From Candidatus Pacearchaeota archaeon (GTDB lineage Archaea > Nanobdellota > Nanobdellia > Pacearchaeales > GW2011-AR1): DNA of 64,000 nucleotides. The first letter of the stretch is position 1. Each line of letters starts with the position of its first letter. The position numbers and the translations under genes are program-made. Below the pieces are notes generated by a model, which had not been told where the DNA came from, ran no database searches, and was given only the letters and a program-made list of their open reading frames with translations. Positions 3,166 to 55,527 of the stretch are shown here, in pieces. The stretch is from contig VGKO01000001.1 of NCBI GenBank assembly GCA_016867035.1, positions 1,998-65,997 on the forward strand, in the 5' to 3' direction.

Positions 3166-6100
3166 TCAGGAAATCTTAGGTTTATCTAAATTTTGAAGGC
3201 CCTTGCTAAAATCGTCTAAATAGTTTTCTATACTACTTTTAAGAATAATAACATCTTTTATAGAATAAACTGCATCTTGCTTTATCAAGATAAGTTTCTT
3301 TCCTATCTTCTTGCTTATTCTTTTATCAACTCTAATAAGCCAACCATAAATTTTTGGAATCTTATCTTCCAAGTAAATTTCCTCGACTTTTCCAATAAAG
3401 TTGCCATCTTCAGAATAGACTTTTGTGCCAGTTAGACGACTTAATCTATTTTTAGAACCTTTATTGAAAATTCTTCTAACTTCAAAAATTATATTTTTAA
3501 TTAAAGAGTAAACTTTAATTCTCATCTTATAAATAAGAATAATTAATAATAAAATTAAAAGTATTGCTAAATTCTCTCCTTTAGAAGAGATTCCCTTAAC
3601 CCCCCTAAAAATATGGTTGAAAGTATTCCCAAAGATATCCTTTGTTTTGGTTATAACGCTAGAATTATCTTTTAATTCTACATTTTGATTTTTGCTTTCA
3701 TCTTTTATATTTGTGCTAATATCTTCATCACTATCGCATATGCTATTATTGTTCTTATCTAAACAGCATTCGGCCCCATATCTTATATAAGGGGGGTTGC
3801 AAACAATATTATCCTTAATAACATTTCCAAGAAGATTGCTTCCACCAGAACCTCCTGTAGAACCGCTTGATCCTCCCGTGTTATCTGTAACAGAAGAACT
3901 AACCACAAAACTATCATAAGCTGTAGCTGTACCTCCTGCCCAAGAGACTAATCCTCTAAATCTATAATTTCCAGAAGAACTTGGAGAAGTTAAAGTAGCC
4001 GTTAAATAAGAGTTCCCATTAGCAGATACATATATTGTTTGTTGCCCAGAAGTATAATTTGTATTCTCATTTTCATTAGTAATCCAATAATCAATGACAA
4101 AATCTTGCCCTACGTCTGAATTTTTATTCTCAATAGTAATTATTGTATTAAAACTTGTTGAGGCGGTTACAGATGCAGGCGCATTTACAATAGCATCGGC
4201 AGGCCCCCCATATCCGGGAATTCTTACATTGATTTGGTTTGAAGAATAAGTAATAGAATTAACTGTCGCTGTTGCCTTTACGAATAATTTATTTGCATTT
4301 GAAGCCGCTTTATCTATAATAATAGAACTTAAATAAGTATAATTTTGGGTTCTGTTTAGGTTAGTCGTTGTAGTTAATTCTAAATCAGAATCTATTAAAG
4401 TTATATTTGTTAAATCTTCTCCACCGGAATTTACAATTTCTAGAGATATTGTATAATTAACAGAAGTTGAATTTTCAGAATTATAATATGCATTTTTAGT
4501 TAAAGTCAACTGCTGTTCTGTTTCAGCAGCAGGAATAATTAAAATAATCTCAGAAGAATTTGCAGAAACTTGATTTCCAGAGTAAGAATTAGTTGCATTC
4601 ACTCTTGCAATCGCAATGCTAATATTATACGTAGATGAATTTCTCTCATACAACTTAATATAACTTCTAGTAGAGGAAGAATTTGCAGAAATATTTTCTA
4701 AATTGTAAGGAGAATCTGTTGAGTCTGAGTCAGTTAAAATTGTTGAAGTTGCATCACTTAAACCCTTATTTATTACTCTTAAAGTAAAATTATAAATTAT
4801 CGAGGTATTTGTCATATTATGGATACTCAATATTTTATCCAAAACAAAAGAAGCAGGCCCTCCTATGGAAAAAGTATCTTGGCAAGTCTCATTATATCCC
4901 TTATATGTTGAAGTTGCATTTAAAACATAACTTCCCACAGAAAGATTCGCAAAGCTTGTTTCAAATCCACCATCACTTGCAGTTGTTAAATTTTGATTAG
5001 CGTCTAAATTATTATTTGAATCATAGATGCTTAAATTAACAGCATAATTTGGAACAACAACACTTTCATTTAAAATTGTTCCTTGAACCAAGACAAGAGC
5101 CCCTTGTTGATACGAACCTCCGGCTTCACAAGAAATGGAAAAATTAGTCAAGTTAAAATAAAAGAAATAATTTGTAGAATTTGCTTTTCCATCGCTTGCA
5201 ATAACCGTCCAATTATATCTTCCAGAACTTCCTAAACTCCAGTTGTAAGTTACTTGAGTGCCATTTGTGATATTATAAGTTATATTAATCAAAGAATAAG
5301 TTCCATTTGGATATCCCCCATAAAACCAGACAGTGAAATTATCTAAATTGCCATTATTGTCTGAAGCAGTTGCATTAAGCAATATTGATATTCTATTGTT
5401 CAGATGAGAATTGTTTGTAGGATAATTTAAAGTTATGTTAGGGGCAATATTCGATTGTAATATTATTGTTCTATTTGTACTCCAATTTGAATTTCCTAGA
5501 CTATCAAAAGCAAGACAATTCCAAGTATAATTTCCAACCCCCAAGGCTAATGTCCAATTAGTTGAATTAAGTGTTCCAGTTATATTTGTTGTTTTATTAA
5601 GTATAAAATTGCCATTAGAGCTATTAGTTATATATAGGCTGATATTCTTTAAGGCAAAATTATCTGCAGAAGAGCAGTTAAAGGAAACATTAGTTGTCGA
5701 GCTTGTTATTGTAGCAGCATAATTTAAAGCCGGTGAGTTTAAAGTTAAATTTGGAGCAACGTTATCCATGTTAAAACTAATCAAGTTACTTCCTATATTA
5801 TTACTGGTGTCATTGCAATAAACTATCCAATTATTCCAGCCCGATATACTAGTTAATCCGGTAAAATTTTGTCCTGCCGATTGTATCGAATAATTATTTA
5901 TACCAGAATTATTTGAATACCAACAAGCACTCAAGGCAACATCGTCACTAACGCTATAATTAAGTGTAGTTATACTACCATAGCCCGTTCCATTAATAGG
6001 ATAAGTTATGTTTACTACAGGAAGAGTAGAATCTGAAAAGCCTATTGTTATTGTTCTGTTAATCGAAAAATTTGAATTTCCTAAGCTATCCGAGACAAAA

Positions 6101-9100
6101 CAATTCCAAGTATAAGTCCCTATTCCCAAAGTTAAAGTCCAGTTTGTTGTGTTTATTGTTCCATTTATGTTGGTAGTTCTATTAAAGGTAAAATTGCCAT
6201 TAGAATTATTAGTTAGGTATAAACTAATATTTTTCAAAGCCAAATTATCTGCAGAAGAGCAGTTAAAGGAAACATTAACCGAATTTGAAGTTCCCAAACT
6301 ATATGCATCGGACGGCGAATTCAAAGTTACATTTGGTGTAAAAGTATCTTTATAAAATGAAGAAACACCATTTCCAATATTATTAAGACTATCATTACAA
6401 TAAACTGTCCAATTATTCCAGCCCTCATTACTTGTTAATCCGGTCCAGTTTATTCCTGCAGAAAAAATAGATGAATTTGTTTCTGCATTATTAACTGAAT
6501 ACCAACAGGCACTAATATTCTCATTTGAAGAAACACTATAATTCAAAACAGAAATATTGGTTGCATAACTTGTGCCATTTAAAGGATAAACAATACTTAT
6601 AGCCGGATTGGCATTTCTTATAATAATTGTTCTTTGTTCTGTTGAATTTGAAAATCCAATTGAATCAGATGCAAAAAGCTGATAAGAATATGTCCCCAAA
6701 TCTAATCCAGCAGTTGAATTTTTGCTCTGATTTGCATAAAAATACCATTGAGTAGAATTAAATTTTTGCAAATTAGAAACATACTGCTCATAAATTTCTT
6801 CAGCGCTTAAACTTCTATTCCAAATTCTTACTTCATCAATTGAACCGTTAAAATAATAACCGTCGCTTCTCGCCCCAACCCTCAATAATTCGGTGTTGGC
6901 AACTGCATTCGTAGAATAGGCCGTGCTATTATCCAAAACACCATCAATATAAATCCTTAATTGGCTTCCATTATAAGTTACAGCCAAATGGCTCCAATTA
7001 CCTACGGAAAGGTTATTTTTTGATATTATGGTTTCTGCAAGGTCTGTTGACCATCTAAAAGTAATTCTTCCTGTTGTCGCATAATCCATTAATTGATAAC
7101 CTGTACTTGTCGAACCAGGAGTTGCCTTTGTAACATACATCTGATAACTCTTGAGTGAGTTTCTCTTTGCCCATAAAGAAATAGTGCCTCTTGTAGTTAA
7201 ATCTAGAGAATTTGAATCTGCAACACTAATGACGTCGTTGATTCCATCGAAAAAAGCACCCATTCCATATTTTCCAGAGGTGGAGTTTATTACTGCCCCA
7301 CTTAAAGTTCCATTATTTCCATTAATACTTGCATCCTTCACATGAGTTACATTCTCTCCAAGAGAGGAAATATTATCAAAATTATACATCAAAACCAGAG
7401 AGTTTTCATAGAAAGTATAATTTACCCCATTCCAATTATAAATTATATTTGTAAGCCCATGCGACCCTACAATTGAGGTATTTATTTGAATAGATGTATT
7501 TGTTGTACTTGTTCCGTCTATTGGTGTGGGGGATATAAAACTTAATTGAGGATAGTTTCTTGGAGTTGCATTAACAAAAATTGTTCTAGAGGCAAGATTA
7601 TTCAAGGTATCATTTACAGTTATATTTAAATTATATAAACCAACAGCTAAAAGCGTATTATTTTTTAAATATCCTGAACAATTTACATTGAAATTAGTTG
7701 TGTCATTAACCGTATAGCAAGATATTCCAGAAGCATCTGTAGCATTTATCTGATATGTAAATGCATTCCCATATAAAACTGTTTGATTTGTCAAATTGTT
7801 AAAAGTTGGGAAATTACTATCAGAAACATTTACAAAAATAATATTTGAAACTCTATTATTTAGTGTATCATTAATTGTAATATTGATCCAATAAGTCCTA
7901 CCTGCGAGAAGAGTATTATTTTTTAAATATCCTGAACAATTTACATTGAAATTAGTTGTGTCATTTACAGTAAAACAACTTATGTTATTAGAATCTGTAG
8001 CATTTATCTGATACCCCAACCCTAAAACTTCTGTTGTTGTTTGATTTGCGAGATTATTGAACACGGGTAAAATAGTATCCTTAAAGAATCTGTTTATTCT
8101 ACTTCCCAAATTATTATAACTATCATTGCAATAAACACTCCAATTATTCCAGCCTTCATTGCTTGTCAATCCTGTCCAGTTTATTCCTGCTGAAACAATT
8201 GAAGAATTCCAGATTCCTGAAGAATTACTCCACCAACATCCACTAATACTCGAGTTATCCGCAACAGTATAATTTAGAGTTGAAATATTAACAATATAAT
8301 TAGTGTTGTTTGCAGGATAGATTATGTTAATCGCCGGAGCAAGAGAATCTGAAACATTCACCCACATTAAACCAGAAGCAAGGTTATTAGAAGTATCATT
8401 AATTGTTATATTTAAGTTATGTAATCCTACATTAAGCAAAGTTTTATTCGTTAAAATACCAGCACAAGACATTGCAAAATTAGTTGTGTCATTAACCGTA
8501 TAGCAAGAAACCCCAAATGTATCTGATGCGCTTATTGTATGAGATAAAGCCGAGCCGTATTCTATAGACTTATTAGAGAGGTTTGTGAAAGTTGGGGAGA
8601 CTATATCTCTTATTGTAACATTCCATTTTGTAGTTATATTACTTATAGTCATATTAGAAGTCATATTAGCATATACAAAAAAAGTATTAGGAGATAAACT
8701 TGTTCCAGTTGCATTAACAATCCAAGTTATTGTTGAAGTCTGGGCATGGCTCAATGTAACATTATATGGATTTTGTGTTGTTGTATAAAATGGGGTTGCA
8801 CTTGTATTCATGGAAACTAGCCCAGATTTTACTCCCGTGCCGCCCGTATAAGTAAGCCATATTTTTGGAACAAGAGTATATGGAGTTGAAGCCATGCTAT
8901 CAAAAGGCCAAATATAACCAGAGTCACTTTGCCCACCAAGAGATCTCCCGTTAGCCAACCCTGTTACAACATACAAACCACCATTAGAAGTCCAGCCACT
9001 ATTATCCCTTGAGAAGTCTATAATAATATTACTTGTACCATCCCATGTGAAATTATTCGTAAAATTAAATTCGAACAAACGACTTACTGAAAATGAAGAG

Positions 9101-11709
9101 GTTGCTATACTTGTTGGGCCATATGCTGTAGTATTCCAAGAAGTAATTGCACTCGATGTAGTATTTAAGTTTGTATGATTCATTCTTATTCTAAAATTCC
9201 CTAATGCTTGTCCTGGAACTTGAGAAACATTAATATATAATTGTTTAATTACAGAACCCGTTGAAAGCCCTGCTGCCCTTAAATCAGAAGCAAGATAAAC
9301 AGACTGCATTCTTGCATCATGAAAATAAGTATTTAATGGATCTGGATTTGATGACGAGCCCCAACCCAAAGTTGAAGTAGCATTTCCTGCATGAATCTCC
9401 ACCATTGTTCCCCCAGATATAGGATCCAAACTTATATTTATCTCTCCGCAATAACCATCGAAACATGAAACATTAACAGAAATATTAAACAATTCGCTAT
9501 AGTTAGCTCCAATATTTTCAGTAGGATAAACCATCTCGAGTGTAATTCTTGGAATTGAGCTTCTTGTAAGAGATATAACCCGCGAGTTCAGATTATTATA
9601 GCTATCATTTACAGTTATATTAAACGTATAATAATAATCTTCCAAAGCAGTTTTATTTGTCAAGTAACCCGAACAATTAATATTAAAATTTGTTGTATCA
9701 TTAACAGTATAGCAAGATATTTCTGAAAGGTCTGTAGCATTTATCTGATAAGCTAATGAATCATACTGTCCGATTGTTTGGTTTGCTAAGTTATTGAATA
9801 AAGGAGGGGTTGTATCTGAAACATTGACAAATATTTCAGCCGATATAAGATGATTGACAGTGTCATTAACAGTTATGTTTACCCAATATAAACCAATTGC
9901 AAGATTTGTGTTGTTTGTCAAGTAACCTGAACAATTAATATTGTAATTAGTTGTGTCATTAACTGTAAAACAATTAATAGCCCCGTCGTCTGTAGCATTT
10001 ATTTGATAGTTAAATGAAGAACCATATTCCGATGTTTTGTTTTCAATTGCTGTGAAATTAGGATTTAGTACATCTTTATTAAATGTAGCAGACTTACTAC
10101 CTATTGCCCCGGTAGTATCATTGCAATAAACACTCCAATTATTCCAACCGTCATTACTTGTCAATCCTGTCCAGTTTGTTCCTGCTGAAACAATTGAAGA
10201 ATTCCAGATTCCTGAAGAATTACTCCACCAACAACTATCAATCGCATTTGTATCTGTAACAGTATAGTTTAATTCTGTGATATCTAAATAACTCGTCCAA
10301 TTAACAGGGTAAGTTATATTTATTGTAGGCGGAACCAAACCCATACCTATACCCATTCCAACCCCCACTAATGCAGGATAACCATCATTTACATTTGAAC
10401 TGATATCCCAATAATTATTGTTTAAAGTATCATTGTAAGGATTAAAAGCAAAATCCCATGAATTAGATATATTTGTATATGTTGAAACATTTTTCATTTG
10501 TGCGGTTGTTTTTCCTATTCCTCCAGAGGAAGTTGTTTTGCTTGTTGTTTGATTATCCCAGAAGCAATTTGCACAAGCATAATCTTGATAATCGCTAAAC
10601 CCTCCCCCGCCAGAGTCTCCAGAAACTCTTCCAGTGGCATAGCATGCAAAAAGATAAACGTCTTGCATCTCTCCTCCAAAAGCAGCTGTGTAGCCAGAGC
10701 TACCTCCACCAGTAACATTACCTCTTGCAAAGGAGTTATTAATAAAATTCGTTCCTAAATATGCTAAACCGACAAAACCCCCACAACCCCTGCTAACACA
10801 ATAAACATTACCTGTAGCATATGATTCCTTGATTTTTCCATCGTATTCTAAGTCTCCTACAAAACCACCAACACTTTCATATCCGGTAGCATTTCCCGTA
10901 GAATAACATCTAGTTATTGTTCCGGTATTATGAGAGCCTACAAAACCACCGACCGAATCTTGATAACTATAAGATGTTGAGGCCAAGGCAGAGGCAGTAG
11001 AATAAGAATCGAAAACAGAACCCCCGTTACCTCCAATAAAACCCCCGCAGTCATCGCTTGTACCGCAGTTAACACTTCCAGTAGAATAAGAATTATTTAT
11101 ATTACCGCCATGAGAACCGACAAAACCCCCTCCAGAATCCCATGAAGTTACATTTATAATTGAATAAGAATTTTTTATGTATCCCAAGCTTAATCCGGCA
11201 AATCCACCAGTATAACTCTGACCTGCGATTCTGCCACTAACAAAAGAATTTGAAATATTTCCCTTATTGTAACCTATTAACCCTCCAGTATAAGAAGCTC
11301 CACTTATATTTACATTTATCAATCCAAGATTAGAGATATTACTTGATAATTCTGAATACCCTATTAATCCAATATAACTTGTAGAAGTTCTTTTTATGTA
11401 TAAATCCGTAATGTTATAATATTGGCCATTCAAGCTTCCTCTAAAGCTACTTGAAGAAGTTCCAATCGGAGAAAATCCTAATGCAGAGTTCCAAGATGTC
11501 GTTTCAGAACAGTTTATATTATTTGCAAGGCCAAAATTTCCTAATAAGTCTAGGCTCAAGTTTTGAAGCTGAGTACAATTTGTTATTAAACAAGGATCTA
11601 ATGTTGTGTTACCACCCGACATTCCCGCGACGCAACCAGCACTTACAAAGTTTATTGCAAATATAAAAAACAAAATTACAATAGTAAAAACAAGTAGACT
11701 TTTTTTCAT
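3166..11709 (-). CDS. Giant (2847 aa) cell-surface protein: signal peptide, Gly-rich GGF(V/I)G repeats, many Ig-like repeats, LamG/ConA-like lectin domain, one C-terminal TM helix, cytoplasmic PRC-barrel-like tail
   Basis: There is an uninterrupted 8.5-kb ORF. The N-terminus 'MKKSLLVFTIVILFFIFAINFVSA' looks like a signal peptide. Repeated modules contain 'CYTVNDTTNFN(I/V)NCSGYL' and 'CWWSNSSGIWNSSIVSAG.NWTGLTSN.GWNNW'. 'SIDEVRIWNRSLSAEEI' is typical of LamG_3 domains. 'LAILLILLLIILIY' is a TM helix near the C-terminus. The tail 'GTKVYSEDGNFIGKVEEIYLED...WLIRVDKR' resembles PRC-barrel domains. N-x-S/T sequons are very dense throughout. Confidence 0.8.
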   Translation of the reverse strand: MKKSLLVFTIVILFFIFAINFVSAGCVAGMSGGNTTLDPCLITNCTQLQNLSLDLLGNFGLANNINCSETTSWNSALGFSPIGTSSSSFRGSLNGQYYNITDLYIKRTSTSYIGLIGYSELSSNISNLGLINVNISGASYTGGLIGYNKGNISNSFVSGRIAGQSYTGGFAGLSLGYIKNSYSIINVTSWDSGGGFVGSHGGNINNSYSTGSVNCGTSDDCGGFIGGNGGSVFDSYSTASALASTSYSYQDSVGGFVGSHNTGTITRCYSTGNATGYESVGGFVGDLEYDGKIKESYATGNVYCVSRGCGGFVGLAYLGTNFINNSFARGNVTGGGSSGYTAAFGGEMQDVYLFACYATGRVSGDSGGGGFSDYQDYACANCFWDNQTTSKTTSSGGIGKTTAQMKNVSTYTNISNSWDFAFNPYNDTLNNNYWDISSNVNDGYPALVGVGMGIGMGLVPPTINITYPVNWTSYLDITELNYTVTDTNAIDSCWWSNSSGIWNSSIVSAGTNWTGLTSNDGWNNWSVYCNDTTGAIGSKSATFNKDVLNPNFTAIENKTSEYGSSFNYQINATDDGAINCFTVNDTTNYNINCSGYLTNNTNLAIGLYWVNITVNDTVNHLISAEIFVNVSDTTPPLFNNLANQTIGQYDSLAYQINATDLSEISCYTVNDTTNFNINCSGYLTNKTALEDYYYTFNITVNDSYNNLNSRVISLTRSSIPRITLEMVYPTENIGANYSELFNISVNVSCFDGYCGEINISLDPISGGTMVEIHAGNATSTLGWGSSSNPDPLNTYFHDARMQSVYLASDLRAAGLSTGSVIKQLYINVSQVPGQALGNFRIRMNHTNLNTTSSAITSWNTTAYGPTSIATSSFSVSRLFEFNFTNNFTWDGTSNIIIDFSRDNSGWTSNGGLYVVTGLANGRSLGGQSDSGYIWPFDSMASTPYTLVPKIWLTYTGGTGVKSGLVSMNTSATPFYTTTQNPYNVTLSHAQTSTITWIVNATGTSLSPNTFFVYANMTSNMTISNITTKWNVTIRDIVSPTFTNLSNKSIEYGSALSHTISASDTFGVSCYTVNDTTNFAMSCAGILTNKTLLNVGLHNLNITINDTSNNLASGLMWVNVSDSLAPAINIIYPANNTNYIVNISTLNYTVADNSSISGCWWSNSSGIWNSSIVSAGINWTGLTSNEGWNNWSVYCNDSYNNLGSRINRFFKDTILPVFNNLANQTTTEVLGLGYQINATDSNNISCFTVNDTTNFNVNCSGYLKNNTLLAGRTYWINITINDTLNNRVSNIIFVNVSDSNFPTFNNLTNQTVLYGNAFTYQINATDASGISCYTVNDTTNFNVNCSGYLKNNTLLAVGLYNLNITVNDTLNNLASRTIFVNATPRNYPQLSFISPTPIDGTSTTNTSIQINTSIVGSHGLTNIIYNWNGVNYTFYENSLVLMYNFDNISSLGENVTHVKDASINGNNGTLSGAVINSTSGKYGMGAFFDGINDVISVADSNSLDLTTRGTISLWAKRNSLKSYQMYVTKATPGSTSTGYQLMDYATTGRITFRWSTDLAETIISKNNLSVGNWSHLAVTYNGSQLRIYIDGVLDNSTAYSTNAVANTELLRVGARSDGYYFNGSIDEVRIWNRSLSAEEIYEQYVSNLQKFNSTQWYFYANQSKNSTAGLDLGTYSYQLFASDSIGFSNSTEQRTIIIRNANPAISIVYPLNGTSYATNISVLNYSVSSNENISACWYSVNNAETNSSIFSAGINWTGLTSNEGWNNWTVYCNDSLNNIGNGVSSFYKDTFTPNVTLNSPSDAYSLGTSNSVNVSFNCSSADNLALKNISLYLTNNSNGNFTFNRTTNINGTINTTNWTLTLGIGTYTWNCFVSDSLGNSNFSINRTITIGFSDSTLPVVNITYPINGTGYGSITTLNYSVSDDVALSACWYSNNSGINNYSIQSAGQNFTGLTSISGWNNWIVYCNDTSNNIGSNLISFNMDNVAPNLTLNSPALNYAATITSSTTNVSFNCSSADNFALKNISLYITNSSNGNFILNKTTNITGTLNSTNWTLALGVGNYTWNCLAFDSLGNSNWSTNRTIILQSNIAPNITLNYPTNNSHLNNRISILLNATASDNNGNLDNFTVWFYGGYPNGTYSLINITYNITNGTQVTYNWSLGSSGRYNWTVIASDGKANSTNYFFYFNLTNFSISCEAGGSYQQGALVLVQGTILNESVVVPNYAVNLSIYDSNNNLDANQNLTTASDGGFETSFANLSVGSYVLNATSTYKGYNETCQDTFSIGGPASFVLDKILSIHNMTNTSIIYNFTLRVINKGLSDATSTILTDSDSTDSPYNLENISANSSSTRSYIKLYERNSSTYNISIAIARVNATNSYSGNQVSANSSEIILIIPAAETEQQLTLTKNAYYNSENSTSVNYTISLEIVNSGGEDLTNITLIDSDLELTTTTNLNRTQNYTYLSSIIIDKAASNANKLFVKATATVNSITYSSNQINVRIPGYGGPADAIVNAPASVTASTSFNTIITIENKNSDVGQDFVIDYWITNENENTNYTSGQQTIYVSANGNSYLTATLTSPSSSGNYRFRGLVSWAGGTATAYDSFVVSSSVTDNTGGSSGSTGGSGGSNLLGNVIKDNIVCNPPYIRYGAECCLDKNNNSICDSDEDISTNIKDESKNQNVELKDNSSVITKTKDIFGNTFNHIFRGVKGISSKGENLAILLILLLIILIYKMRIKVYSLIKNIIFEVRRIFNKGSKNRLSRLTGTKVYSEDGNFIGKVEEIYLEDKIPKIYGWLIRVDKRISKKIGKKLILIKQDAVYSIKDVIILKSSIENYLDDFSKGLQNLDKPKIS

Positions 11710-11999: not shown

Positions 12000-13046
12000 T
12001 TAATCTTCTCCACTTTCTTCATCAGTAACGCCCTTGCTAGCTACAAAGAAAATAGTTTCATTATCAGGCAAGTTTGGGGAATCAATTAACTTAGCTACTC
12101 TTGAACCTTTCTTGCCTTTTCTAAGATAAATTCTATAAGTTGAAGCATGTCCAACTATATTCCCGCCAATAGCAGTTGTAGGATCTCCAAACAACATTCC
12201 GGGATTACTCATAACCTGATTAGTAACATAAATCGCAAGATTATTTTGCTCTGCAATTTTCATTAAATTATGTAAATACTTATTCAATTTTTGTTGTCTA
12301 TCTGCTAATTGTCCTCTTCCTGAGAATTCAGCTCTAAAATGAGCAGTAAGCGAATCGACTACAATTAACTTGATAGGCTCATTATTTTTAATCATCTCTT
12401 GAACCTTATCCAATAATAATATTTGATGGTCTGAATTAAAAGCTCTTGCAACAAATATATTTTTTAAAACATTTTCCGGATTTAGCCCAAGCCCTGTTGC
12501 AATTTGTCTTATTCTTTCAGGTCTGAAGGTTCCTTCAGTGTCAATAAATACTGCTTTTCCATTAGCTCCACCCATTTCCACAGGTAATTGAGTTCTGATG
12601 GCTAAAGTAAATCCAAGCTGAGATTTTCCACTTCCAAAAGCACCATAAGCCTCTGTAATTGATTTAGTTTCAACACCCTTGCCCCCTAGAAGATTATCTA
12701 AATTTTTGCTTCCTGTACCAATAAAAAATATTTCTTTTCTCTTTTCTGAAAACTCTGAACCTGTTTGAAAACCCAAGTCCATCATTTTTCTTGCTGCTTG
12801 GATTGCTTTTCTAGCAACCGCTTCTCCAAGCCCAGCCATTTCTCCAAGTTCGGCAGGCGATAATACTGCAACACCCATTAAATCATAAATACCCGCATCC
12901 TCAAGCTTTTGGACAGTTCCCGGCCCAATTCCAGGCAAATCTGAGATTTTGTTTTCTTTTTTTTCTTCTTTTTCTTTTTTGGATTTTTTCTTAGATTCTT
13001 CTTTTTCCTCTATAACCTCTTCTTTTATCTCTTTTAAAGTTACCAT
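12000..13046 (-). CDS. radA: DNA repair and recombination protein RadA (Rad51/RecA family)
   Basis: An N-terminal HhH ('LPGIGPGTVQKLEDAGIYDLMGVA') is followed by Walker A 'GAFGSGKSQL' and Walker B '...LIVVDSL'. It carries a Lys/Glu-rich N-terminal extension. Confidence 0.9.
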   Translation of the reverse strand: MVTLKEIKEEVIEEKEESKKKSKKEKEEKKENKISDLPGIGPGTVQKLEDAGIYDLMGVAVLSPAELGEMAGLGEAVARKAIQAARKMMDLGFQTGSEFSEKRKEIFFIGTGSKNLDNLLGGKGVETKSITEAYGAFGSGKSQLGFTLAIRTQLPVEMGGANGKAVFIDTEGTFRPERIRQIATGLGLNPENVLKNIFVARAFNSDHQILLLDKVQEMIKNNEPIKLIVVDSLTAHFRAEFSGRGQLADRQQKLNKYLHNLMKIAEQNNLAIYVTNQVMSNPGMLFGDPTTAIGGNIVGHASTYRIYLRKGKKGSRVAKLIDSPNLPDNETIFFVASKGVTDEESGED

Positions 13047-13148: not shown

Positions 13149-13502
13149 GTGGGAAGCACCTATTATCAAGAAGTTAAAGAATTAATGGCTTCGCAAGGAT
13201 ATGGCCGATGTACCCTAGATCAAGCCCATGTTTTTGATAAACTAGGTGTAGAAAACTACAAAAGAATTCTTAAGTTGGTTTTCCAAAAAAGCACAATTGA
13301 ATTTGAACTCGAGAATAGACTCGCAAGAAGGTATGCTTTTGTCGAAAGATGCAGAAGAAGAACCAAGGAGATTTTTAAAAGGCTAAGAGTCAAGATAACC
13401 ACCCTAGAAAAAGAAAAACATAATCTAAATGATTTACAAATAGCAGACTTAGAACACTCAGAGATATTTACAAGGACTCTTGAAGGAATATTCTCGAATT
13501 AA
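13149..13502 (+). CDS. Hypothetical protein (117 aa)
   Basis: The only support is the ORF itself. The stop abuts tRNA-Thr on the opposite strand. No recognisable motifs were found. Confidence 0.3.
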   Translation: MGSTYYQEVKELMASQGYGRCTLDQAHVFDKLGVENYKRILKLVFQKSTIEFELENRLARRYAFVERCRRRTKEIFKRLRVKITTLEKEKHNLNDLQIADLEHSEIFTRTLEGIFSN

Positions 13503-13574
13503 GCCTGTAGCCGGGATTGAACCGGCGACCCCCGCATTACGAATGCGATGCTCTACCAACTGAGCTATACAGGC
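13502..13574 (-). tRNA. tRNA-Thr (anticodon CGU)
   Basis: Reverse complement reads GCCTGTA-TA-GCTCAGTTGGTAGAGC-A-TCGCA-TTCGTAA-TGCGG-GGGTC-GCCGGTTCAATCCCGGC-TACAGGC. The 7-bp acceptor stem is perfect, with canonical D and T loops. The anticodon loop TTCGTAA gives anticodon CGT. Confidence 0.75.
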
Positions 13575-13637
13575 ATAAAAGGCTAAAAAAGAACAATTAT
13601 TTAATTTTTGCTACTCTTATTATTTTAATATCCCTAG

Positions 13638-13964
13638 TTAGCTCTTCTCACTAACATGAAGCCTGTGCTCAATCTCGTTCAACAGAGCTTGGAAAGCACT
13701 ATTTAGGGCTTTATTTAAATCCCAATCAAAAGCACTTGCGTTCATTCGTGGTATTTGCCCAGAGATTTCTAAATCAATACTATACTTTTTTCTCTTATTT
13801 TTATTTTCTTCAATTTTATTATGCTCTTTTACTAGAATTCTTAGATAAAAGTCATTGTTAATCCAGTTTTTTATTTTATGAGAGTATTTGCTGATTTTTT
13901 CATTAACTACTTGTCTTTCAGATTCGTTAAGAAGTTCTAACCCTTTTATTTCAATTGTTTCCAT
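13638..13964 (-). CDS. Ribosome hibernation factor-like protein (HPF/RaiA/YfiA family), tentative
   Basis: Hydrophobic and charged residue spacing ('IEIKGLELLNESERQVVNEKISKYSHKI...LRILVKE...YSIDLEISGQIPRMNASAFDWDLNKALNSAFQALLNEIEHRLH') aligns by eye with E. coli YfiA/HPF ('[28 protein letters not shown]...ILSKE...[34 protein letters not shown]'). Confidence 0.4.
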   Translation of the reverse strand: METIEIKGLELLNESERQVVNEKISKYSHKIKNWINNDFYLRILVKEHNKIEENKNKRKKYSIDLEISGQIPRMNASAFDWDLNKALNSAFQALLNEIEHRLHVSEKS

Positions 13965-14038
13965 TTAAAGAAGGAGATATTTTAATTTATATATCTTGTG
14001 AAACATTTTATTACAAACTATATTATTGTTTTTTCAAA

Positions 14039-14977
14039 TTAGGGTTTTTCTAATTCTTCTATTAATTTATCCAAATCTACTTCATGAATGTCATTAACAA
14101 AAATCTCCAGGTTCTCGGAAAGCTTGTTCTTTCTAACTCCGCCACCGATAAAAACCTCTTTCCCTAAAAGACTTTCTCTCTGAAGCATAAATTCTTCAGA
14201 ACTAGGGATTTCTGGAGTATTTGTCAATTTTTTTATTTGTTCTGAAAAAAGAACCGCCCTTATACTTGAAGTACCATCATCTATAATCAAAGTGAGTATA
14301 GCATTTTTTTTAGGTATAATCTTTCCATGAATTTCGCACTCTCCCATTTCATTCACTTTTTTATTACATTCAGAACATACACTATAAAAGGTTGGCCCGA
14401 AAATTTGAACAATAAAGGCTCTTGAAATTACATTATCATTCATTTGCATTTTCTCTATAGTTTTTTGTTGCAATACTTGCTTAGTTTGAACATTCTCAAG
14501 GATAACATTACTCAACTTAATGTCTCCAAAACTTGAGAGGTGCATCTCTCCGTTTCTTATATCTCCATTAGAAATTTCAACAACATCCCCTTCTTTTACT
14601 TCCCCCCTTTCTATTAAACCAATATGATTAACATCCCATAAAACTACTCTAATATTACTCGAATCGTCTGCAACTAAAAAACTTCCAATTTTACCGCTTC
14701 TCCCATTTTTATTATACTCAGCTACTTTATTCAATCTTATAATCTTACCAACAAGATTAATTCTTCTCATTCCGCTGAGTAATCCAGAAATTTTCATCTT
14801 TTGCTTATCAAAACTTATTCCTAGCTCAGAGGCTATAATCTGCGCAGCCCCTTCTTTACTAATAAGCCCAGATAACTTGGCTCTCTTAGCCTCTATCCTT
14901 CTCTCAATCTCATCTATAGGTAATTGCGAGCTTTCCGAGAGCATCTTTAGTATTTGTTCGTAATTTCCGTTTATCAT
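14039..14977 (-). CDS. Replication protein A (RPA)-like single-stranded DNA-binding protein with OB folds and a Zn ribbon
   Basis: It has an RPA-type N-terminal helical segment ('ISKEGAAQIIASELGI'), an OB-fold region ('GKIGSFLVADDSSNIRVVLWD') and a 'CSECNKKV...CEIHG' zinc ribbon. Confidence 0.6.
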   Translation of the reverse strand: MINGNYEQILKMLSESSQLPIDEIERRIEAKRAKLSGLISKEGAAQIIASELGISFDKQKMKISGLLSGMRRINLVGKIIRLNKVAEYNKNGRSGKIGSFLVADDSSNIRVVLWDVNHIGLIERGEVKEGDVVEISNGDIRNGEMHLSSFGDIKLSNVILENVQTKQVLQQKTIEKMQMNDNVISRAFIVQIFGPTFYSVCSECNKKVNEMGECEIHGKIIPKKNAILTLIIDDGTSSIRAVLFSEQIKKLTNTPEIPSSEEFMLQRESLLGKEVFIGGGVRKNKLSENLEIFVNDIHEVDLDKLIEELEKP

Positions 14978-15121: not shown

Positions 15122-15394
15122 ATGGGATTTACAGCAGTACAAATGAAATTAATGCCAGAGTCTCCTAGCGTAGACTTAAAGGCCATAGAAGTAAGTGCAG
15201 AGCAGATTATTAATTCAATGCATAAAACCCAAGTCAGAGTTGAAGAACAACCGATTGCCTTCGGATTAAAGGCAATAATTCTTAGTTTTGCTTGGAACGA
15301 TGAGATAGAACTTGAAAAACTAGAAGCAGAGTTCCAAAAAATACCCCAAGTTTCAAGTGTTGAAGTTCTTGATATAAGAAAAGCTTTCGGATAA
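15122..15394 (+). CDS. Elongation factor 1-beta (aEF-1beta)
   Basis: The 90-aa product has 'KLMPESPSVDLKAIE...IAFGLKAIIL...VSSVEVLDIRK', typical of archaeal EF-1beta. Confidence 0.8.
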   Translation: MGFTAVQMKLMPESPSVDLKAIEVSAEQIINSMHKTQVRVEEQPIAFGLKAIILSFAWNDEIELEKLEAEFQKIPQVSSVEVLDIRKAFG

Positions 15395-17431: not shown

Positions 17432-18316
17432 TTATAACATCGCAAGCAAGATTAAGAGAAGAATAGCAAATAGAAAAGCCGGAGTAAAAGGAATACCATA
17501 TTTTATTTCAACCTTCTTGTTTTTTCCAAATCTTTTAGTAATTATTTTAAGTTCTTCTTCACTTAAACCTTCCCAATTAGGCTTTATTATTTTTTTTCCA
17601 ATCTTTACTTTAGTAGTTAACCAGTCTCCAATAGTTAAGTTAGAAACCGGGGGAAATTTAGTTAAGCAAGATTCCTCTATAGCCTTAGCAGCCAATAATA
17701 AAATAGGCAAAATAATCATCACCCCTGCTAAAATCATACCAATTGCTAGATTAAATAAAAAGAATACTCCAAAAACAATTGCAAAGAACAAGATAGAAGA
17801 TAGTGTCTGAATCTTATACTTAGAGAAAGAAATTATAAAACTTTTCTTAAACTTCCCCAGATGTAAAAACATTAAAGTTAAACTATAAATCAAGCCATAA
17901 ATACTTCCGGCCAGTATAAAGAAAAAAATAAACAAGCAAAATATCCAAATATTTTGATTAAAATTATTTGTTAAAGGTAAAAAAGCGCCAAGGGCTATTA
18001 AGAGTTTAGCATCCCCGCCGGCGAAAACCCTAGCATAATAAAAAATATTAGCCAATATAAAACCAACAACCACTCCAATCAAACCCCAAACAAAAAAACC
18101 CCAGTTAGCTAGTTCAATAGATAAAAAGAACCTATAAGCCAAAATAAAGACAATTAGACTAAAGTTCCACCAATTAGCAACCTCTCTCTTCCTAAAATCC
18201 TGGATAACAGCAATTAAAACCCAAAACAAAACCCCTATGATTAAAAACCAATTATAACTTGTTAATATCTCTTTAAGGTTGAGATTGAATAAGAATTGCA
18301 TAAAAAATAAGTCCAT
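17432..18316 (-). CDS. Type IV prepilin/preflagellin peptidase (A24 family; PibD/FlaK-like)
   Basis: It is a polytopic membrane protein. 'IQDFRKREVANWW' matches the first catalytic-Asp motif and 'FAGGDAKLLIALGAF' matches the GGD(V/A)KL second-Asp motif. It sits at the end of the pilin gene array. Confidence 0.7.
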   Translation of the reverse strand: MDLFFMQFLFNLNLKEILTSYNWFLIIGVLFWVLIAVIQDFRKREVANWWNFSLIVFILAYRFFLSIELANWGFFVWGLIGVVVGFILANIFYYARVFAGGDAKLLIALGAFLPLTNNFNQNIWIFCLFIFFFILAGSIYGLIYSLTLMFLHLGKFKKSFIISFSKYKIQTLSSILFFAIVFGVFFLFNLAIGMILAGVMIILPILLLAAKAIEESCLTKFPPVSNLTIGDWLTTKVKIGKKIIKPNWEGLSEEELKIITKRFGKNKKVEIKYGIPFTPAFLFAILLLILLAML

Positions 18317-18522
18317 TAGATATAAATTATTAATTATTATTTCCAGAGTTTATTTGATTAACCTCAGATGTTCTAAACTTACCGCCATGCTTATAAGGAA
18401 AAAGTTTACGTCTTTTTTTCTTGTCCTTACCTTTATTTCTTCTTTCACTACCTGAAGAATAAAAATCATCACCCATTATAAGAATAGGAAAAAAGGGTTT
18501 AAAAGTTTAATTAAAATTGAAT

Positions 18523-19041
18523 TTATTCTGTTCCTGTTTCTTCAATATTAGCAACTGTCTTTTCACAGCAAACCTCAGTCTTTACATCATGCATTTCTGA
18601 ATTTTGTATTTGAGAAGTAAAATCTTTTGCGGTTCCGCATCCAGGGTTCTTTGACTTCCAGTCACAGTTAAGGACACCATCATCTTTTAATGAAGTTTCA
18701 GCACAATCCACATTTGGACAACTTTCAAGTCCTGCCTCGCCCACATTAGTTCTCAGAGTAGAACAACTTCCTCTAAAAGAACGCTTATCGTCTAAATTAA
18801 TTGTTCTTGATTTTCCACAGAACTCATAAACCTGACTAGTAGAACATGCCGCAGTACAAGCATTTTTAATAGTATCTACATTTGTACCTGAACCAAAGAA
18901 ATTTTTAATATTATCCATCAAACTTCCGCCGCTTCTAGTAAAACTAAATATTAAGAAAACCAATACAACAATAGCAATAATAATTACAATTATTGTACCA
19001 ACACTCATTTCCTGAGCTTTTTTATTCAATAAGTTTCTCAT
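18523..19041 (-). CDS. Pilin-like protein with class III (type IV pilin) signal peptide; Cys-rich C-terminal domain
   Basis: '...NKKAQEMSVGTIIVIIIAIVVLVFLIF' is a KKA|Q processing-site-like motif followed by a hydrophobic stretch. There are 12 or more Cys C-terminally. Confidence 0.6.
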   Translation of the reverse strand: MRNLLNKKAQEMSVGTIIVIIIAIVVLVFLIFSFTRSGGSLMDNIKNFFGSGTNVDTIKNACTAACSTSQVYEFCGKSRTINLDDKRSFRGSCSTLRTNVGEAGLESCPNVDCAETSLKDDGVLNCDWKSKNPGCGTAKDFTSQIQNSEMHDVKTEVCCEKTVANIEETGTE

Positions 19042-19078
19042 GTTCCTCTTTGTATCTAACCATATATGTTTCTGGGGT

Positions 19079-19555
19079 TTAAAAATCTATCTCAAAAACA
19101 ACGTCTGTGTTAAAATTAACCGCCTCTATTCCGAAATCCTTATTGGCATCTATAACCTTACTAATCCTAAATCCAGAAAGATAAAAATATAGTTTATTTC
19201 CCTCAACTTTTGATTTAGCATAATTTCCTTCTTGTACTTGAAGATTATATTCTTCTAATTCTTTAATTCCTTCGGCTTGATTTGAGAATTCTTGCTTGAA
19301 CTGAACTATAAAGTCTGAAGTCCCAAATTTTGCCCCTTGATTTTCTGTTAAAACTTTTTCTGCAACAGCCCTCATGGTGAATTCAATCCCTTGTTGTTCT
19401 GAATAAATATGCAACAACTCTGAAGAACCCTGTATCTTCTCTTGATTACTAGCTTTCGAAGTCATAAACATAAATAAGGCAAAACCTACGAGTAAAACAG
19501 TCATTATGACTAAAATTGTAATTGCAATATCTCCTTTCTTTCTTTTAAACATCAT
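19079..19555 (-). CDS. Pilin-like protein with class III signal peptide
   Basis: 'MMFKRKKGDIAITILVIMTVLLVGFALFMF'. The start overlaps the upstream gene's stop by 4 bp. Confidence 0.6.
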   Translation of the reverse strand: MMFKRKKGDIAITILVIMTVLLVGFALFMFMTSKASNQEKIQGSSELLHIYSEQQGIEFTMRAVAEKVLTENQGAKFGTSDFIVQFKQEFSNQAEGIKELEEYNLQVQEGNYAKSKVEGNKLYFYLSGFRISKVIDANKDFGIEAVNFNTDVVFEIDF

Positions 19556-20157
19556 GTTATTGAAGTCCCCCTTGCAGCTCTTTCAGCAGCCTTGTCTAAT
19601 GCCGACTCTGTTAAGCTTTTTTGAACATAACCCTCACAATCAACCAGACCTAGTTTTATTTTAATAAATTTATCCTCGCTTGGATAAAAAAAGACTATGC
19701 TATTTGGAGACAGACATTTGGATTGTATTGTAGGGTCTGCTTCTTTATTAAAAATGGATTTATCATTGATAGAAACCGAATGAAAAACAAAGTTAGAACC
19801 TTTGAATATCTCTTGATTCAACGAAGCGATAAAGCTTCCTAGTTCAGAATAAGATACTTCGCCTTTTACATAACTTAAAATTTCTTGTTTAAGAGAGGTT
19901 TGTCTTTCTTTAAATAAAATTATTTGATTAAAATTTGAAAAAGCAGCAGAGGTAGTTGCTTCCACTAAAAGACTTGAAGACCTTTCAGTTTTACCAAAGA
20001 GTCCAGAAACACTTGAAACTGCTTTTCTTGGGGCAGCCATCCCAACAGAAAAGCTTACAAATAGAAAAATAATAAAAAATATAATAATAAAACCCACCAC
20101 CCAAGTAAGAGTAGAGGGAGTTTGTGCCTTTCTAAGTTTTATTTTATTTGATTTCAT
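19552..20157 (-). CDS. Pilin-like protein with class III signal peptide
   Basis: 'KLRKAQTPSTLTWVVGFIIIFFIIFLFV'. Confidence 0.55.
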   Translation of the reverse strand: MKSNKIKLRKAQTPSTLTWVVGFIIIFFIIFLFVSFSVGMAAPRKAVSSVSGLFGKTERSSSLLVEATTSAAFSNFNQIILFKERQTSLKQEILSYVKGEVSYSELGSFIASLNQEIFKGSNFVFHSVSINDKSIFNKEADPTIQSKCLSPNSIVFFYPSEDKFIKIKLGLVDCEGYVQKSLTESALDKAAERAARGTSIT

Positions 20158-20159
20158 TT

Positions 20160-20642
20160 TTATTTTTTAACAAATTTATAGTTTGAACCCGTAGTCATTT
20201 CAATGTTAACTTTTTCACCCAAATAAGACGAAGAAATCTTTTTTTGAGTACAAAGAGGATAGGCCTTAGCATTTAATTGTGAAGCAAATAAACAATCCTC
20301 TTCAAAAGCACGATTACCGAAGACTAAATTTTTAGAATTAACTCCACTAATAGAGAGTTTTATATAAAAGAAGCCAGAATTTTCGATTAGATTTCTATTT
20401 AAATCACAGGTATCAAAAAAATTAAAGTCTTCTGAAAATACGCTAGGATTAACTTGGCCATTATTTATTAAACAATCAACTACTTTATTTGTAATAATTT
20501 CAGACTGTAAAACCCGAATATCAATGTCGCTAGCATAAAATATTGAAGTCCCTGCAATCATTCCTGCCCCAATAACTGCAAGTACCAAAAACCACCAAAC
20601 AGACAATAAATTACCCTTTCTTCCAATTTTTTTAGATAGCAT
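20160..20642 (-). CDS. Pilin-like protein with class III signal peptide
   Basis: 'KIGRKGNLLSVWWFLVLAVIGAGMIAG'. Confidence 0.55.
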   Translation of the reverse strand: MLSKKIGRKGNLLSVWWFLVLAVIGAGMIAGTSIFYASDIDIRVLQSEIITNKVVDCLINNGQVNPSVFSEDFNFFDTCDLNRNLIENSGFFYIKLSISGVNSKNLVFGNRAFEEDCLFASQLNAKAYPLCTQKKISSSYLGEKVNIEMTTGSNYKFVKK

Positions 20643-20643
20643 T

Positions 20644-21054
20644 TTAAACTTTTTTTAGAACAAGAACCTCCTGATTCTCTTGAGATTTATCTACATAGTA
20701 ACTAAAAGACTTTGAAGAAGATAAAAATTGAAAATTATATCCCCCTGATCCAAGTACCTGAATGTGAATTGTGTTGGTATTACTATCTATAGAAATAACT
20801 TGCCCACTATATCTATTTTTTTCTGCGAAATCATATAACTTTGTTAGAGAAAAATTAGCTTCTGTACCTGGTTTCATTGAATCTATTAAGATAGCAACTG
20901 TTTTAGCACTTGTTTCTTCTAAAACAGCAGCACCGGTGCTAGCCCGAACAATAAAAAACATAATTGCAAGTAAAAAAATCAGATTTAGAATAAGAAAAAT
21001 TAATTGTTTGGAGATTATTTCATCCCCTTTTTTATTTTTAATAAAGTTTTTCAT
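20644..21054 (-). CDS. Pilin-like protein with class III signal peptide
   Basis: 'KNKKGDEIISKQLIFLILNLIFLLAIMFFIV'. Confidence 0.55.
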   Translation of the reverse strand: MKNFIKNKKGDEIISKQLIFLILNLIFLLAIMFFIVRASTGAAVLEETSAKTVAILIDSMKPGTEANFSLTKLYDFAEKNRYSGQVISIDSNTNTIHIQVLGSGGYNFQFLSSSKSFSYYVDKSQENQEVLVLKKV

Positions 21055-21060
21055 CTTAAA

Positions 21061-22149
21061 TTAGGGGATACTCTCTATATTAGAACAATATTTCGCAATC
21101 TCACTAACATTATAATCTACGCTTCTTACAACTGAACAACCCTCATAGGTATCGTCGCCAATTTTAGAATCCCCACAATAACTAGCGGTTATCTGCCTAT
21201 TATAAGCTACATTTGACTGTTGTAACCCTATTCCAACTGCAGCAGATATAAGCGCTACCAATGGATTTTTAAAAAGCCCAGAAGCTAATTGTTTAGTCCA
21301 AGTAGGAGCTAATACTCTACTTGCTCCATATCCTCCTAAAAGAGCAGTTGCGCTATTTTTAAGACTGGTGCCGTATTGTGGAGCAGATATCTGCATAAAA
21401 ACTATTGCAGACTCTTTATTAAATGCAGAATAATCTGAAACCGGTTCTTTTAAGTCTTCAGGTTTTATAGAGGAGCCTTCTGACTTAAGAGTATTTCCAT
21501 CTTTTTGATAATTAAAATCTCCGAAAGAGATATCTGAATTTAATGAATCCTTAAAGTTATATAATCCTCCAGCGCCAGAAATATATTCCATATAAGTTTT
21601 CTCCTCGCCAGGAACCTTATGCGTTATCATATAACTGCCAACATCAATTTTTGAGAAATCAAATTCAGGTTCTTTTATTCTAGATTTATCAAAGGCTATC
21701 CTTGTACAGATAATGCAACTTGGAGAAACGGTTCCGAATCCAAAATTTTTAGCTAGAGTTTGGGAGAACAAATTTAATTTGCCTTCGCCCATGGTGCTCC
21801 AGCAATCCAAAATTTCTTGTGCGTAAATTTGTTCTATCTGTTCTTCATTTCTAACCCTCACTCGAGTTATACCTTTTTCACCAATAAAATCTGCGCACTC
21901 TCCCCCCAGTAATCCTGAAGTAATACAAATTTTATTAGTTTTACATTTTAAAGGAAGAAACCCCTGAGTCGATTCAGGAATAGTAGCTCTGAATATTACC
22001 GATTGATGACAAACTTCCCTATCCATTGCACCAGTTCCACCAAGGTTATAGAAAAAAATAAGAACCATCATGAATCCAAGAACAAGAAGCACGATAGTTA
22101 CTATCCAAGCTATCGTTATTTCCCCTTTTCTTTTTTTATCCTTTCCCAT
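21061..22149 (-). CDS. Large pilin-like / pilus-associated protein with class III signal peptide (362 aa)
   Basis: 'KKRKGEITIAWIVTIVLLVLGFMMVLIFF' is followed by a Cys-containing globular region. Confidence 0.55.
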   Translation of the reverse strand: MGKDKKRKGEITIAWIVTIVLLVLGFMMVLIFFYNLGGTGAMDREVCHQSVIFRATIPESTQGFLPLKCKTNKICITSGLLGGECADFIGEKGITRVRVRNEEQIEQIYAQEILDCWSTMGEGKLNLFSQTLAKNFGFGTVSPSCIICTRIAFDKSRIKEPEFDFSKIDVGSYMITHKVPGEEKTYMEYISGAGGLYNFKDSLNSDISFGDFNYQKDGNTLKSEGSSIKPEDLKEPVSDYSAFNKESAIVFMQISAPQYGTSLKNSATALLGGYGASRVLAPTWTKQLASGLFKNPLVALISAAVGIGLQQSNVAYNRQITASYCGDSKIGDDTYEGCSVVRSVDYNVSEIAKYCSNIESIP

Positions 22150-22344
22150 TTTAAATAATCAAAAGATTTCAACATTAAAAATCTATGCAGTGAGATTATC
22201 AACTAGTAATTTAACCCCAAAAGCAAGTATGGCAAAAAGAGCAATTCTTAATAGCCATAAAAAAAAGTGGCTTCCTGGATTTTCCTCGCCTTTTTTATTT
22301 TTAAAAAGATTTACCATTGTATTAAGAGTTGTATTAGGATTTAT

Positions 22345-23223
22345 TTAAGACTTACATTCAGGAACCCCCAATTCCCAGATTTTTAATTTTACTTCAAAAC
22401 TTTTTCCATTTGGAGAAGTAAGCTGAGCAGAACCCAAATCTAAAACCTTGCTAGAGCCATCCCAGCCAAAAGCCATGCCTGTATTCGTAATAACGCTATT
22501 ACTATTAAAGCCACCAACATTAGAAATTTCCATTCTGAAAGCAAGAGAATTGGTTTTTTCGGAAAAATATTCGTTAAGAACATTTAAAGGATAATTGCTA
22601 TAAACTCCGCCGGGCTCATCAACATAAAGACCGAGTATATAAGAAATATCTGCATCATGAACATTGGAATCATATTGGGGTTTATACTGTGCAGAAGAAC
22701 TTAAAATCTCGATTAGCTTAATATTTTGACCAACCAACTTATACTCTTCTGAATAAATAAGGATATTTCCAGAATCATTCTTTATTAAAAGGTTCAAGGG
22801 TGTTTTTAAAATAACAAAGCAAGGATAAATATTATCATATTGTTCAAACCCTTGCTGATAAAAATAAAATTTTTCTTTAGTTGATTTACATTGACCTGTT
22901 TTAAAACAATCTTGCCTACCTTCCTTACAAAGACAAAGGCAATTAGAATCTCCGCAGGAAGAAGGTTTACTCTCTTCTTCTTTAAAAGAAAAAATAGACC
23001 AATCTTTTAAATTAGTAATAAGATATTGAGCTTGAGCACCATTAGCTAAAGCCTTTCCTTTGCCAGCAATATCTTCTAATATTGCTTTAGCCTGTTCTAT
23101 TTCAGAACCTCTTGTAAAAATACCATAAAGTCCGAATGCTAAATAAAGAAGAAGTATTATGCAGAAAACTGCAATAACTAACTTCAAAACTTCTGGTAAA
23201 ACAATTGCTTTTTTGTTTATCAT
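22345..23223 (-). CDS. Pilin-like / pilus-associated protein with class III signal peptide (292 aa)
   Basis: 'MINKKAIVLPEVLKLVIAVFCIILLLYLAFG', with a Cys-rich segment 'CGDSNCLCLCKEGRQDCFKTGQC'. Confidence 0.5.
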   Translation of the reverse strand: MINKKAIVLPEVLKLVIAVFCIILLLYLAFGLYGIFTRGSEIEQAKAILEDIAGKGKALANGAQAQYLITNLKDWSIFSFKEEESKPSSCGDSNCLCLCKEGRQDCFKTGQCKSTKEKFYFYQQGFEQYDNIYPCFVILKTPLNLLIKNDSGNILIYSEEYKLVGQNIKLIEILSSSAQYKPQYDSNVHDADISYILGLYVDEPGGVYSNYPLNVLNEYFSEKTNSLAFRMEISNVGGFNSNSVITNTGMAFGWDGSSKVLDLGSAQLTSPNGKSFEVKLKIWELGVPECKS

Positions 23224-23224
23224 T

Positions 23225-24121
23225 TTAAGAATTATTTTTAATTATTTCTAATTTACCTGATTTATAGACTAAATTGGTTAAATAAAAACCAGTATCTCCT
23301 AGTTCTTCACCAAAAGTTATTCTAGAATCAAAAGTATAGTAAGAGTCTACAAGATAACTTTTACGAACATAAACCTTCCCATCAGACATTACCATTGCCA
23401 AAAGTTTCCTGCTATTACCCACATAAAGAAGGCTATTTTCTTTTGAGTTCTCTATTAAAATCCTACCTTCTTCGCCTTCTTTTGCAACCAAGAGAAGACT
23501 TTTATCCGCAATATTTTTAGATTTAAAATAAATAGTATTAAGTTGTGAAATTAAAGTTACAATAGGATCTTCAGGCAACAACTCTTTACTTTTGCTTTTA
23601 AATATTTCTGCCCCCACTATTTTCGCGCCTTCTAATTTTCGAACATAAATCTCATTTACATCGACCGAACCAATATATTTATGATAATATATTGAATTAA
23701 TTACAAAGAAATAATTCTTAATTGTTCCAAGAGTCTTATCATTCCAAGCGCCCGGAACATTTATAATAATCTCGCCTTGTCCTTCATTCAATTCAACATA
23801 AAGATTGCTAGGAATTTCCTTATAACTTGGTTTTTCAGAAGTTCCAACATTATCTAAAAAAATAATGTAAAAATCTTTAACACTTTCTTGTTTTAATTCA
23901 ATCTTACCTATTAATTCATAATTAAGAGCTTTTATTTGTGTAGGAGTAAGCGTATTTTCATTATCCGGACTTTGTTGAAAACCTGGAAGATTTCTTATCC
24001 ATCCAAATATTTCTGGTTTGGTAAAGAATAATACGACTGCTACTATAACTAATAAAACCAAGATTAGAGTAATAATTTTACTAATTGCCAAGCTCTCAGC
24101 TGCTTTTTTATTTTTTAACAT
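23225..24121 (-). CDS. Pilin-like / pilus-associated protein with class III signal peptide (298 aa)
   Basis: 'KNKKAAESLAISKIITLILVLLVIVAVVLFF'. Confidence 0.55.
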   Translation of the reverse strand: MLKNKKAAESLAISKIITLILVLLVIVAVVLFFTKPEIFGWIRNLPGFQQSPDNENTLTPTQIKALNYELIGKIELKQESVKDFYIIFLDNVGTSEKPSYKEIPSNLYVELNEGQGEIIINVPGAWNDKTLGTIKNYFFVINSIYYHKYIGSVDVNEIYVRKLEGAKIVGAEIFKSKSKELLPEDPIVTLISQLNTIYFKSKNIADKSLLLVAKEGEEGRILIENSKENSLLYVGNSRKLLAMVMSDGKVYVRKSYLVDSYYTFDSRITFGEELGDTGFYLTNLVYKSGKLEIIKNNS

Positions 24122-25074: not shown

Positions 25075-25119
25075 AACAACTATTTAAGGATTTCTATATA
25101 AACAAAAACAATGTGTGAT

Positions 25120-55526: not shown

Positions 55527-55527
55527 T

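Follow-up and report, generated by a model that had tools for sequence, protein, structure and literature searches.

The window analysed here, a stretch of 64,000 nucleotides from the Candidatus Pacearchaeota archaeon contig VGKO01000001.1, carries at 13638..13964 (-) an open reading frame (ORF) with an ATG start and a TAA stop, whose product of 108 aa has the HPF fold and belongs to the HPF/YfiA(RaiA) superfamily, a homology that is close to certain. The protein is probably a stand-alone archaeal HPF/RaiA-like protein, homologous to the 30S-binding C-terminal domain of HibA/AHA, with a hibernation-type role; the hibernation function taken by itself, argued by analogy, is likely but a little less assured. 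The ORF was read from the sequence and its translation, and all the peptide strings quoted in the original prediction, which had described a bacterial-type ribosome hibernation factor, are present in it. NCBI has an identical product, the 'hypothetical protein FJZ17_00070 [Candidatus Pacearchaeota archaeon]', and the same protein recurs on four more metagenome contigs with unchanged neighbours; the source samples are of freshwater (JGI 3300020220 and 3300020074). The class of stand-alone archaeal HPFs was already catalogued in 2026, under the names 'HPF/RaiA-like' (PMC13324472) and 'HPF-only / canonical HPF homologs' (PMC12934967), and the window gene is one more unannotated example of it.

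Membership in the HPF/RaiA Family

Homology to HPF is demonstrable because intermediate sequences and a family profile reach PF02482 and HPF chains. An exhaustive phmmer search over 1.84 billion representatives returned 159 cluster representatives at E<=1e-3, nearly all of 96-140 aa, and 145 of the homologues make up alignment A2; 51 of these 145 individually match PF02482 at E<=0.01 (best 4.3e-7), and no other Pfam family is matched by more than three of them. P0161, which is 49% identical to the window protein, carries a precomputed PF02482 match, and the JGI pipeline label 'ribosome-associated translation inhibitor RaiA' is attached to P0002 (81% identical) and to P0020. With the 145-sequence profile, the top matches among PDB sequences are HPF chains (9t0z_9, E=0.009; 8uu4_w, 0.016; HI0257, 0.04); a profile of four sequences was still noisy, with kinesin and eS1 ranking above HI0257. 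The single sequence matches TIGR00741 (yfiA) at E=0.0016 and 18.8 bits, below the cut-off of 40.9, in a collinear alignment of residues 14-95 with profile positions 14-85 of 102; the curated cut-offs of PF02482 and TIGR00741 are operational criteria of the models and not biological properties.

The AlphaFold2 (AF2) model is confident and has the HPF fold, in agreement with the comparison to YfiA proposed originally; the domain spans residues 2-107, the loop between β2 and β3 is the sole part of low confidence, and the protein ends 8 residues past helix 2. The model, the PF02482 matches of the homologues and the HPF chains heading the family profile together bear out the claimed likeness to the HPF/YfiA family. 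A generic dsRBD-like binder of double-stranded RNA, unrelated to ribosomes, is disfavoured and scarcely credible as an explanation, and dsRBD membership was rejected.

Among the relatives, P0048 (210 aa, on a 1349-bp Logan contig outside the window) starts with an HPF-like domain (residues 1-103) that contains the complete DW-x-L ... EIEHKLHVSEQ motif; the roughly 100 residues after it are hydrophobic and resemble transmembrane segments. It represents either an HPF variant anchored in the membrane or a read-through of gene calling.

Affinity to the HPF Domain of HibA/AHA

HibA combines four CBS domains with a C-terminal HPF/RaiA domain (Madru et al., Nat Commun 2026, PMC13324472). In cryo-electron microscopy of Pyrococcus abyssi ribosomes, the C-terminal domain lies in the 30S subunit's mRNA:tRNA channel, in contact with h44, h28, h24 and h23 and with uS12, uS9, uS19, uS11, uS7 and eS28, and free 30S is also bound by HibA through this domain (PMC13324472). 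The phmmer matches of the window protein include P0075 (298 aa) and P0141 (400 aa), named by JGI as CBS-domain proteins, and the region matched in both is the C-terminal 100 residues; P0141 aligns almost end to end with the HibA chain of P. abyssi from Madru et al. (PDB 9sr9_H), and an archaeal source for it is suggested by two features encoded nearby, a ProRS C-terminal domain of archaeal/eukaryotic type and a Zn ribbon of TFIIB type. In pairwise comparison with the two C-terminal domains, identity is 35% for P0141 and 37% for P0075; in the joint alignment A5 the corresponding values are 32-33%, compared with 16-20% to Escherichia coli HPF and RaiA (both sequences entered by hand) and 14% to the C-terminal domain of P. 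abyssi HibA itself. By these values the protein appears closer to the HibA-type C-terminal domain than to bacterial HPF/RaiA, and the low identity to P. abyssi HibA restricts the affinity to one HibA subclade.

The residue pattern points the same way. Trp81, the most conserved residue of the family (137 of the 145 members), recurs in both CBS-domain proteins, P0141 and P0075, and in P. abyssi HibA (ETWG); the E. coli sequences have a different residue there. HibA has two archaeal-specific insertions, 283-SAL-285 between β1 and α1 and 324-KFRGVHL-330 between β2 and β3; deletion of both leaves its in vitro activity unchanged, and neither is stated to be required for stand-alone forms (PMC13324472). 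In the window protein the β1-α1 insertion is absent, and the β2-β3 insertion is present and enlarged: the loop of residues 49-60, NKIEENKNKRKK, is rich in lysine and arginine, the interval between K46 and Y61 is 14 residues against a family mode of 10, and in A5 the insertion is about 13 residues longer than in E. coli and 3-4 longer than in HibA-type domains.

Compared with HibA/AHA (P. abyssi Q9UYR4, PDB 9SR9-9SRF), the protein has a homologous HPF-type domain, the tryptophan in a D/E-W-D/G motif and the β2-β3 insertion, and its sequence suggests use of the same site in the 30S channel; it differs in lacking the N-terminal CBS module, and with it contacts to the 50S subunit and AMP/ATP binding, as well as the 'SAL' insertion and a C-terminal tail of about 25 residues. 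Identity with the four-CBS–HPF fusion itself is ruled out, there being no N-terminal extension. From the bacterial short HPF and RaiA/YfiA (PF02482, TIGR00741) and plastid pY/PSRP1 it is set apart by an identity of only 6-20%, by scores below both curated thresholds, by the roughly 13 extra residues of the β2-β3 hairpin, by W81 and by an EIEH-x-x-H motif at the C-terminus, and its target would be an archaeal ribosome; we know of no RMF-type partner in archaea. Bacterial long HPF (lHPF) has the same fold in its N-terminal domain, but that identity is ruled out, since no C-terminal dimerisation domain follows the HPF domain, and formation of 100S particles by the lHPF mechanism would not be expected. 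In a scan of some 30 of the window's larger ORFs, a result that extends to these 64 kb of the genome, no CBS-module or SBDS gene was found. To the archaeal stand-alone class, in contrast, there is no difference in kind: the single HPF/RaiA domain, the missing CBS module, the DPANN host and the affinity to the HibA C-terminus are all the same, with this Pacearchaeota subclade having a longer, very basic β2-β3 loop.

Stand-alone HPF/RaiA-like proteins have been reported mostly in DPANN and Nitrososphaerales; they generally nest in clades of HibA, a pattern that points to the CBS module having been lost more than once, and HPF/RaiA-like, HibA and CM families are predicted to exclude one another (PMC13324472). 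A preprint on AHA independently puts the number of HPF-only proteins at 926, from 814 species of archaea in 12 phyla (PMC12934967), and the initial description of such proteins as rare in archaea is not supported. The host of the window gene is an archaeon, since RadA, aEF-1beta (15122-15394), PolD DP1/DP2 (52014-57096, -) and Orc1/Cdc6 (57222-58460, -) all lie in the window, and every family member with an informative gene context is archaeal as well: an uncultured archaeon (L001), a woesearchaeote in which the gene adjoins Kae1 (L002), a member of the Nanoarchaeia with TFB, S8e and LSm nearby (L003), a locus beside Orc1/Cdc6 (L009) and another between FtsJ and PTH2 near Rpr2 (L010). This taxonomy rests on sampled gene contexts, a narrow peptide pattern search having yielded 3 loci and a family-profile search 23 proteins. 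The distribution among relatives, including metagenome-assembled genomes of Woesearchaeota and Nanoarchaeia, speaks against the label 'bacterial-type', which fails also on the higher identity to HibA-type domains.

Recent acquisition of a bacterial HPF/RaiA gene by horizontal transfer is therefore very unlikely, even if the fold and the weak profile similarity point to bacterial models and an ancient transfer of the HPF domain from Bacteria to Archaea is favoured by Madru et al. (PMC13324472); the HPF domain of the window protein is of an archaeal lineage and not a recent bacterial import.

Constraint, Orthologues and Gene Context

The 108-aa ORF is a real, constrained gene, because 159 relatives were found and because synonymous sites are saturated with few amino-acid changes; the homologue count and the purifying selection rule out a chance ORF. 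Three orthologues (80-81% and 59% identity) share the aEF-1beta / RPA-like / HPF-like neighbourhood, and between them the proportion of differing synonymous sites (pS) is 0.65-0.81 and that of nonsynonymous sites (pN) 0.08-0.12; pN/pS is 0.12-0.16 in comparison with the window gene, and between L011 and L012 dN/dS is 0.058.

These values bear on the idea that the gene is a decaying, non-functional remnant of HibA that has lost its CBS module, which would accord with the inferred origin of stand-alone forms by loss of that module (PMC13324472). The purifying selection is strong, and the orthologues have neither a dN/dS near 1 nor frequent frameshifts; 93 of the 145 homologues start with Met at the same aligned position, nearly all homologues are 96-140 aa long, the AF2 model is confident, and the 74-nt spacer between the HPF-like ATG and the RPA-like gene leaves no room for a remnant of the CBS module, all of which makes decay extremely improbable. 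A different history, tentative and rather unlikely, would make the DPANN stand-alone proteins descendants of an ancestral unfused archaeal HPF, with HibA arising later by fusion, rather than derivatives by CBS loss; under either history they could be naturally soluble, self-sufficient HPF domains.

The upstream neighbour of the HPF-like gene is the RPA-like OB-fold protein gene (14039-14977). The spacer between them contains a TATA-like box, ATATATAAAT (13985..13994, -), starting 30 nt 5' of the ATG. In archaeal promoters the TATA box is centred about 26 nt 5' of the transcription start site, and on that basis ATATATAAAT is a putative promoter of the HPF-like gene's own; the distance to the ATG would make the mRNA leaderless or nearly so, and the coding strand has no Shine-Dalgarno-like GGAGG. 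A T6 run at 13585..13590 (-), 48 nt 3' of the stop codon, is a possible archaeal oligo-T terminator. Beyond it lie a co-oriented tRNA-Thr(CGU) (13502-13574, -; found by ARAGORN and Rfam) and RadA (12000-13046). The GC content around the HPF-like gene is unremarkable. Between RadA and the tRNA-Thr, an ORF of 117 aa (13149-13502, +) has no Pfam match; ORFs of similar size occupy the same syntenic position in L001 (130 aa, 5079-5471) and in L004 and L011 (116-117 aa).

In close relatives, microsynteny is broken on one side of the gene or the other: L012 (1780-2958) has an MFS transporter inserted between it and the RPA-like gene, and L001 (4330-4968) has a 212-aa membrane protein between it and the tRNA-Thr. 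The HPF-like gene therefore behaves as an independent unit. Beyond the local synteny in close Pacearchaeota, no conserved operon partner was found, and at more distant loci the neighbours are unrelated. The sole translation-linked neighbourhood observed for the family is that of L010 (5434-6695), where the distant relative P0128 is packed, with overlapping stop and start codons, between FtsJ (an rRNA methyltransferase) and PTH2 (a peptidyl-tRNA hydrolase), Rpr2 being nearby.

Proposed Role in Ribosome Hibernation

That the protein binds the ribosome, where it does so and what it does in the cell are inferred here. In the 30S channel the protein would overlap the mRNA path and the anticodon stem-loops of the A and P sites, as HibA's C-terminal domain and bacterial HPF/RaiA do; once bound, it would exclude mRNA and the A- and P-site tRNAs, blocking initiation, and would shield the decoding centre from nucleases. 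The missing 4xCBS module would leave it with no reach to the 50S subunit (peptidyl transferase centre, uL5 and L1 stalk) and no sensing of AMP/ATP, and the missing C-terminal domain of long HPF with no ribosome dimerisation by that route, so that the behaviour expected is that of a short HPF/RaiA-type 'plug'. By alignment, the loop of residues 49-60 would match the insertion by which HibA contacts uS12 and the decoding bases, and its basic character may add anchoring.

Several points weigh against this assignment and role. Searched alone, the window protein has no match to PF02482 or any other Pfam family at E<=10, and a single-sequence phmmer search of PDB sequences returned only noise (USP28, kinesin); the profile check suggested in the original prediction therefore succeeded through the family and the intermediates, whose matches are significant, and failed for the protein alone, its TIGR00741 match being sub-threshold. 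The β1-α1 insertion that it lacks is the one that binds the uS19 tail in HibA. The predicted isoelectric point (pI) is 7.96 (18 K+R against 17 D+E), compared with a family median of 9.3, and near-neutrality is unusual for an rRNA binder. The stand-alone archaeal class is known only from bioinformatic cataloguing (PMC13324472, PMC12934967), and, because HibA's isolated C-terminal domain was not obtained in soluble form (PMC13324472), the sufficiency of an HPF domain alone on the archaeal ribosome is an assumption. Finally, the neighbours are RPA-like, tRNA-Thr and RadA genes, and since a conserved translation operon is absent, the gene context gives no functional support.

Some of these points would also suit an HPF-fold ribosome or RNA binder that is not induced by stress, for instance a constitutive accessory or assembly factor of the small subunit, or a regulator of translation in a DPANN archaeon of reduced genome. 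The pI near neutrality in comparison with the family, the missing energy-sensing CBS module, the lack of stress-related neighbours at the locus and the position of one relative's gene between FtsJ and PTH2, which suggests a housekeeping role in translation, are all in its favour. Nevertheless, all members of the fold that have been characterised act in hibernation or silencing and lodge in the decoding channel, incompatible with translation (PMC13324472), and the residues in common with HibA-type domains speak for an identical mode of binding. A constitutive role is a minority possibility, though an appreciable one, and a hibernation-type role of the stand-alone protein the probable one.

Other Features of the Window

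Beside orc1/cdc6, a gene-free and very AT-rich stretch of 1.1 kb (58461-59549; GC 0.26 in the 58-60 kb bin) coincides with a change of sign in GC skew, from about -0.23 to +0.03/+0.06, and with a minimum of cumulative skew near 58 kb, and is a candidate replication origin from its composition; a repeat search for origin-recognition boxes next to orc1/cdc6 gave only AT-rich low-complexity matches and no clear boxes. The Pfam matches of a giant ORF of 2847 aa (3166-11709, -) are limited to a Laminin_G_3 domain, which is concanavalin-like (lectin), and a GLUG motif; it probably encodes a large surface or adhesion protein of a kind common in DPANN genomes. In the region 17432-29868 (-), a run of same-strand ORFs is flanked by the gene of a prepilin (A24) peptidase (17432-18316) and by that of a secretion ATPase of T2SSE type (27583-29868), and may be a surface-appendage cluster of type-IV-pilus-like or archaellum-like character; the ORFs scanned between them (18523-19041, 21061-22149, 22345-23223, 23225-24121 and 25120-27282) have no Pfam match. 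A DRG/Obg-like GTPase with MMR_HSR1 and TGS domains (47012-47923, +) is another ribosome-associated factor, with no evident link to the HPF-like gene.

Significance

To our knowledge, next to nothing was known of archaeal ribosome hibernation until 2025-2026. The window protein does not alter our view of the domains of life in which HPF is used; its value lies in being a natural stand-alone counterpart of the 30S-binding domain of HibA, insoluble in its isolated form (PMC13324472). With such a protein one could test directly whether the archaeal ribosome is silenced and protected by an HPF domain alone, and learn how a DPANN cell with a reduced genome parks its ribosomes when it has no CBS energy sensor. 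If these proteins are indeed soluble and self-sufficient domains, whether ancestral or derived by CBS loss, the HPF plug alone would be able to hibernate the archaeal ribosome, and the enlarged basic β2-β3 loop would be a compensating anchor.
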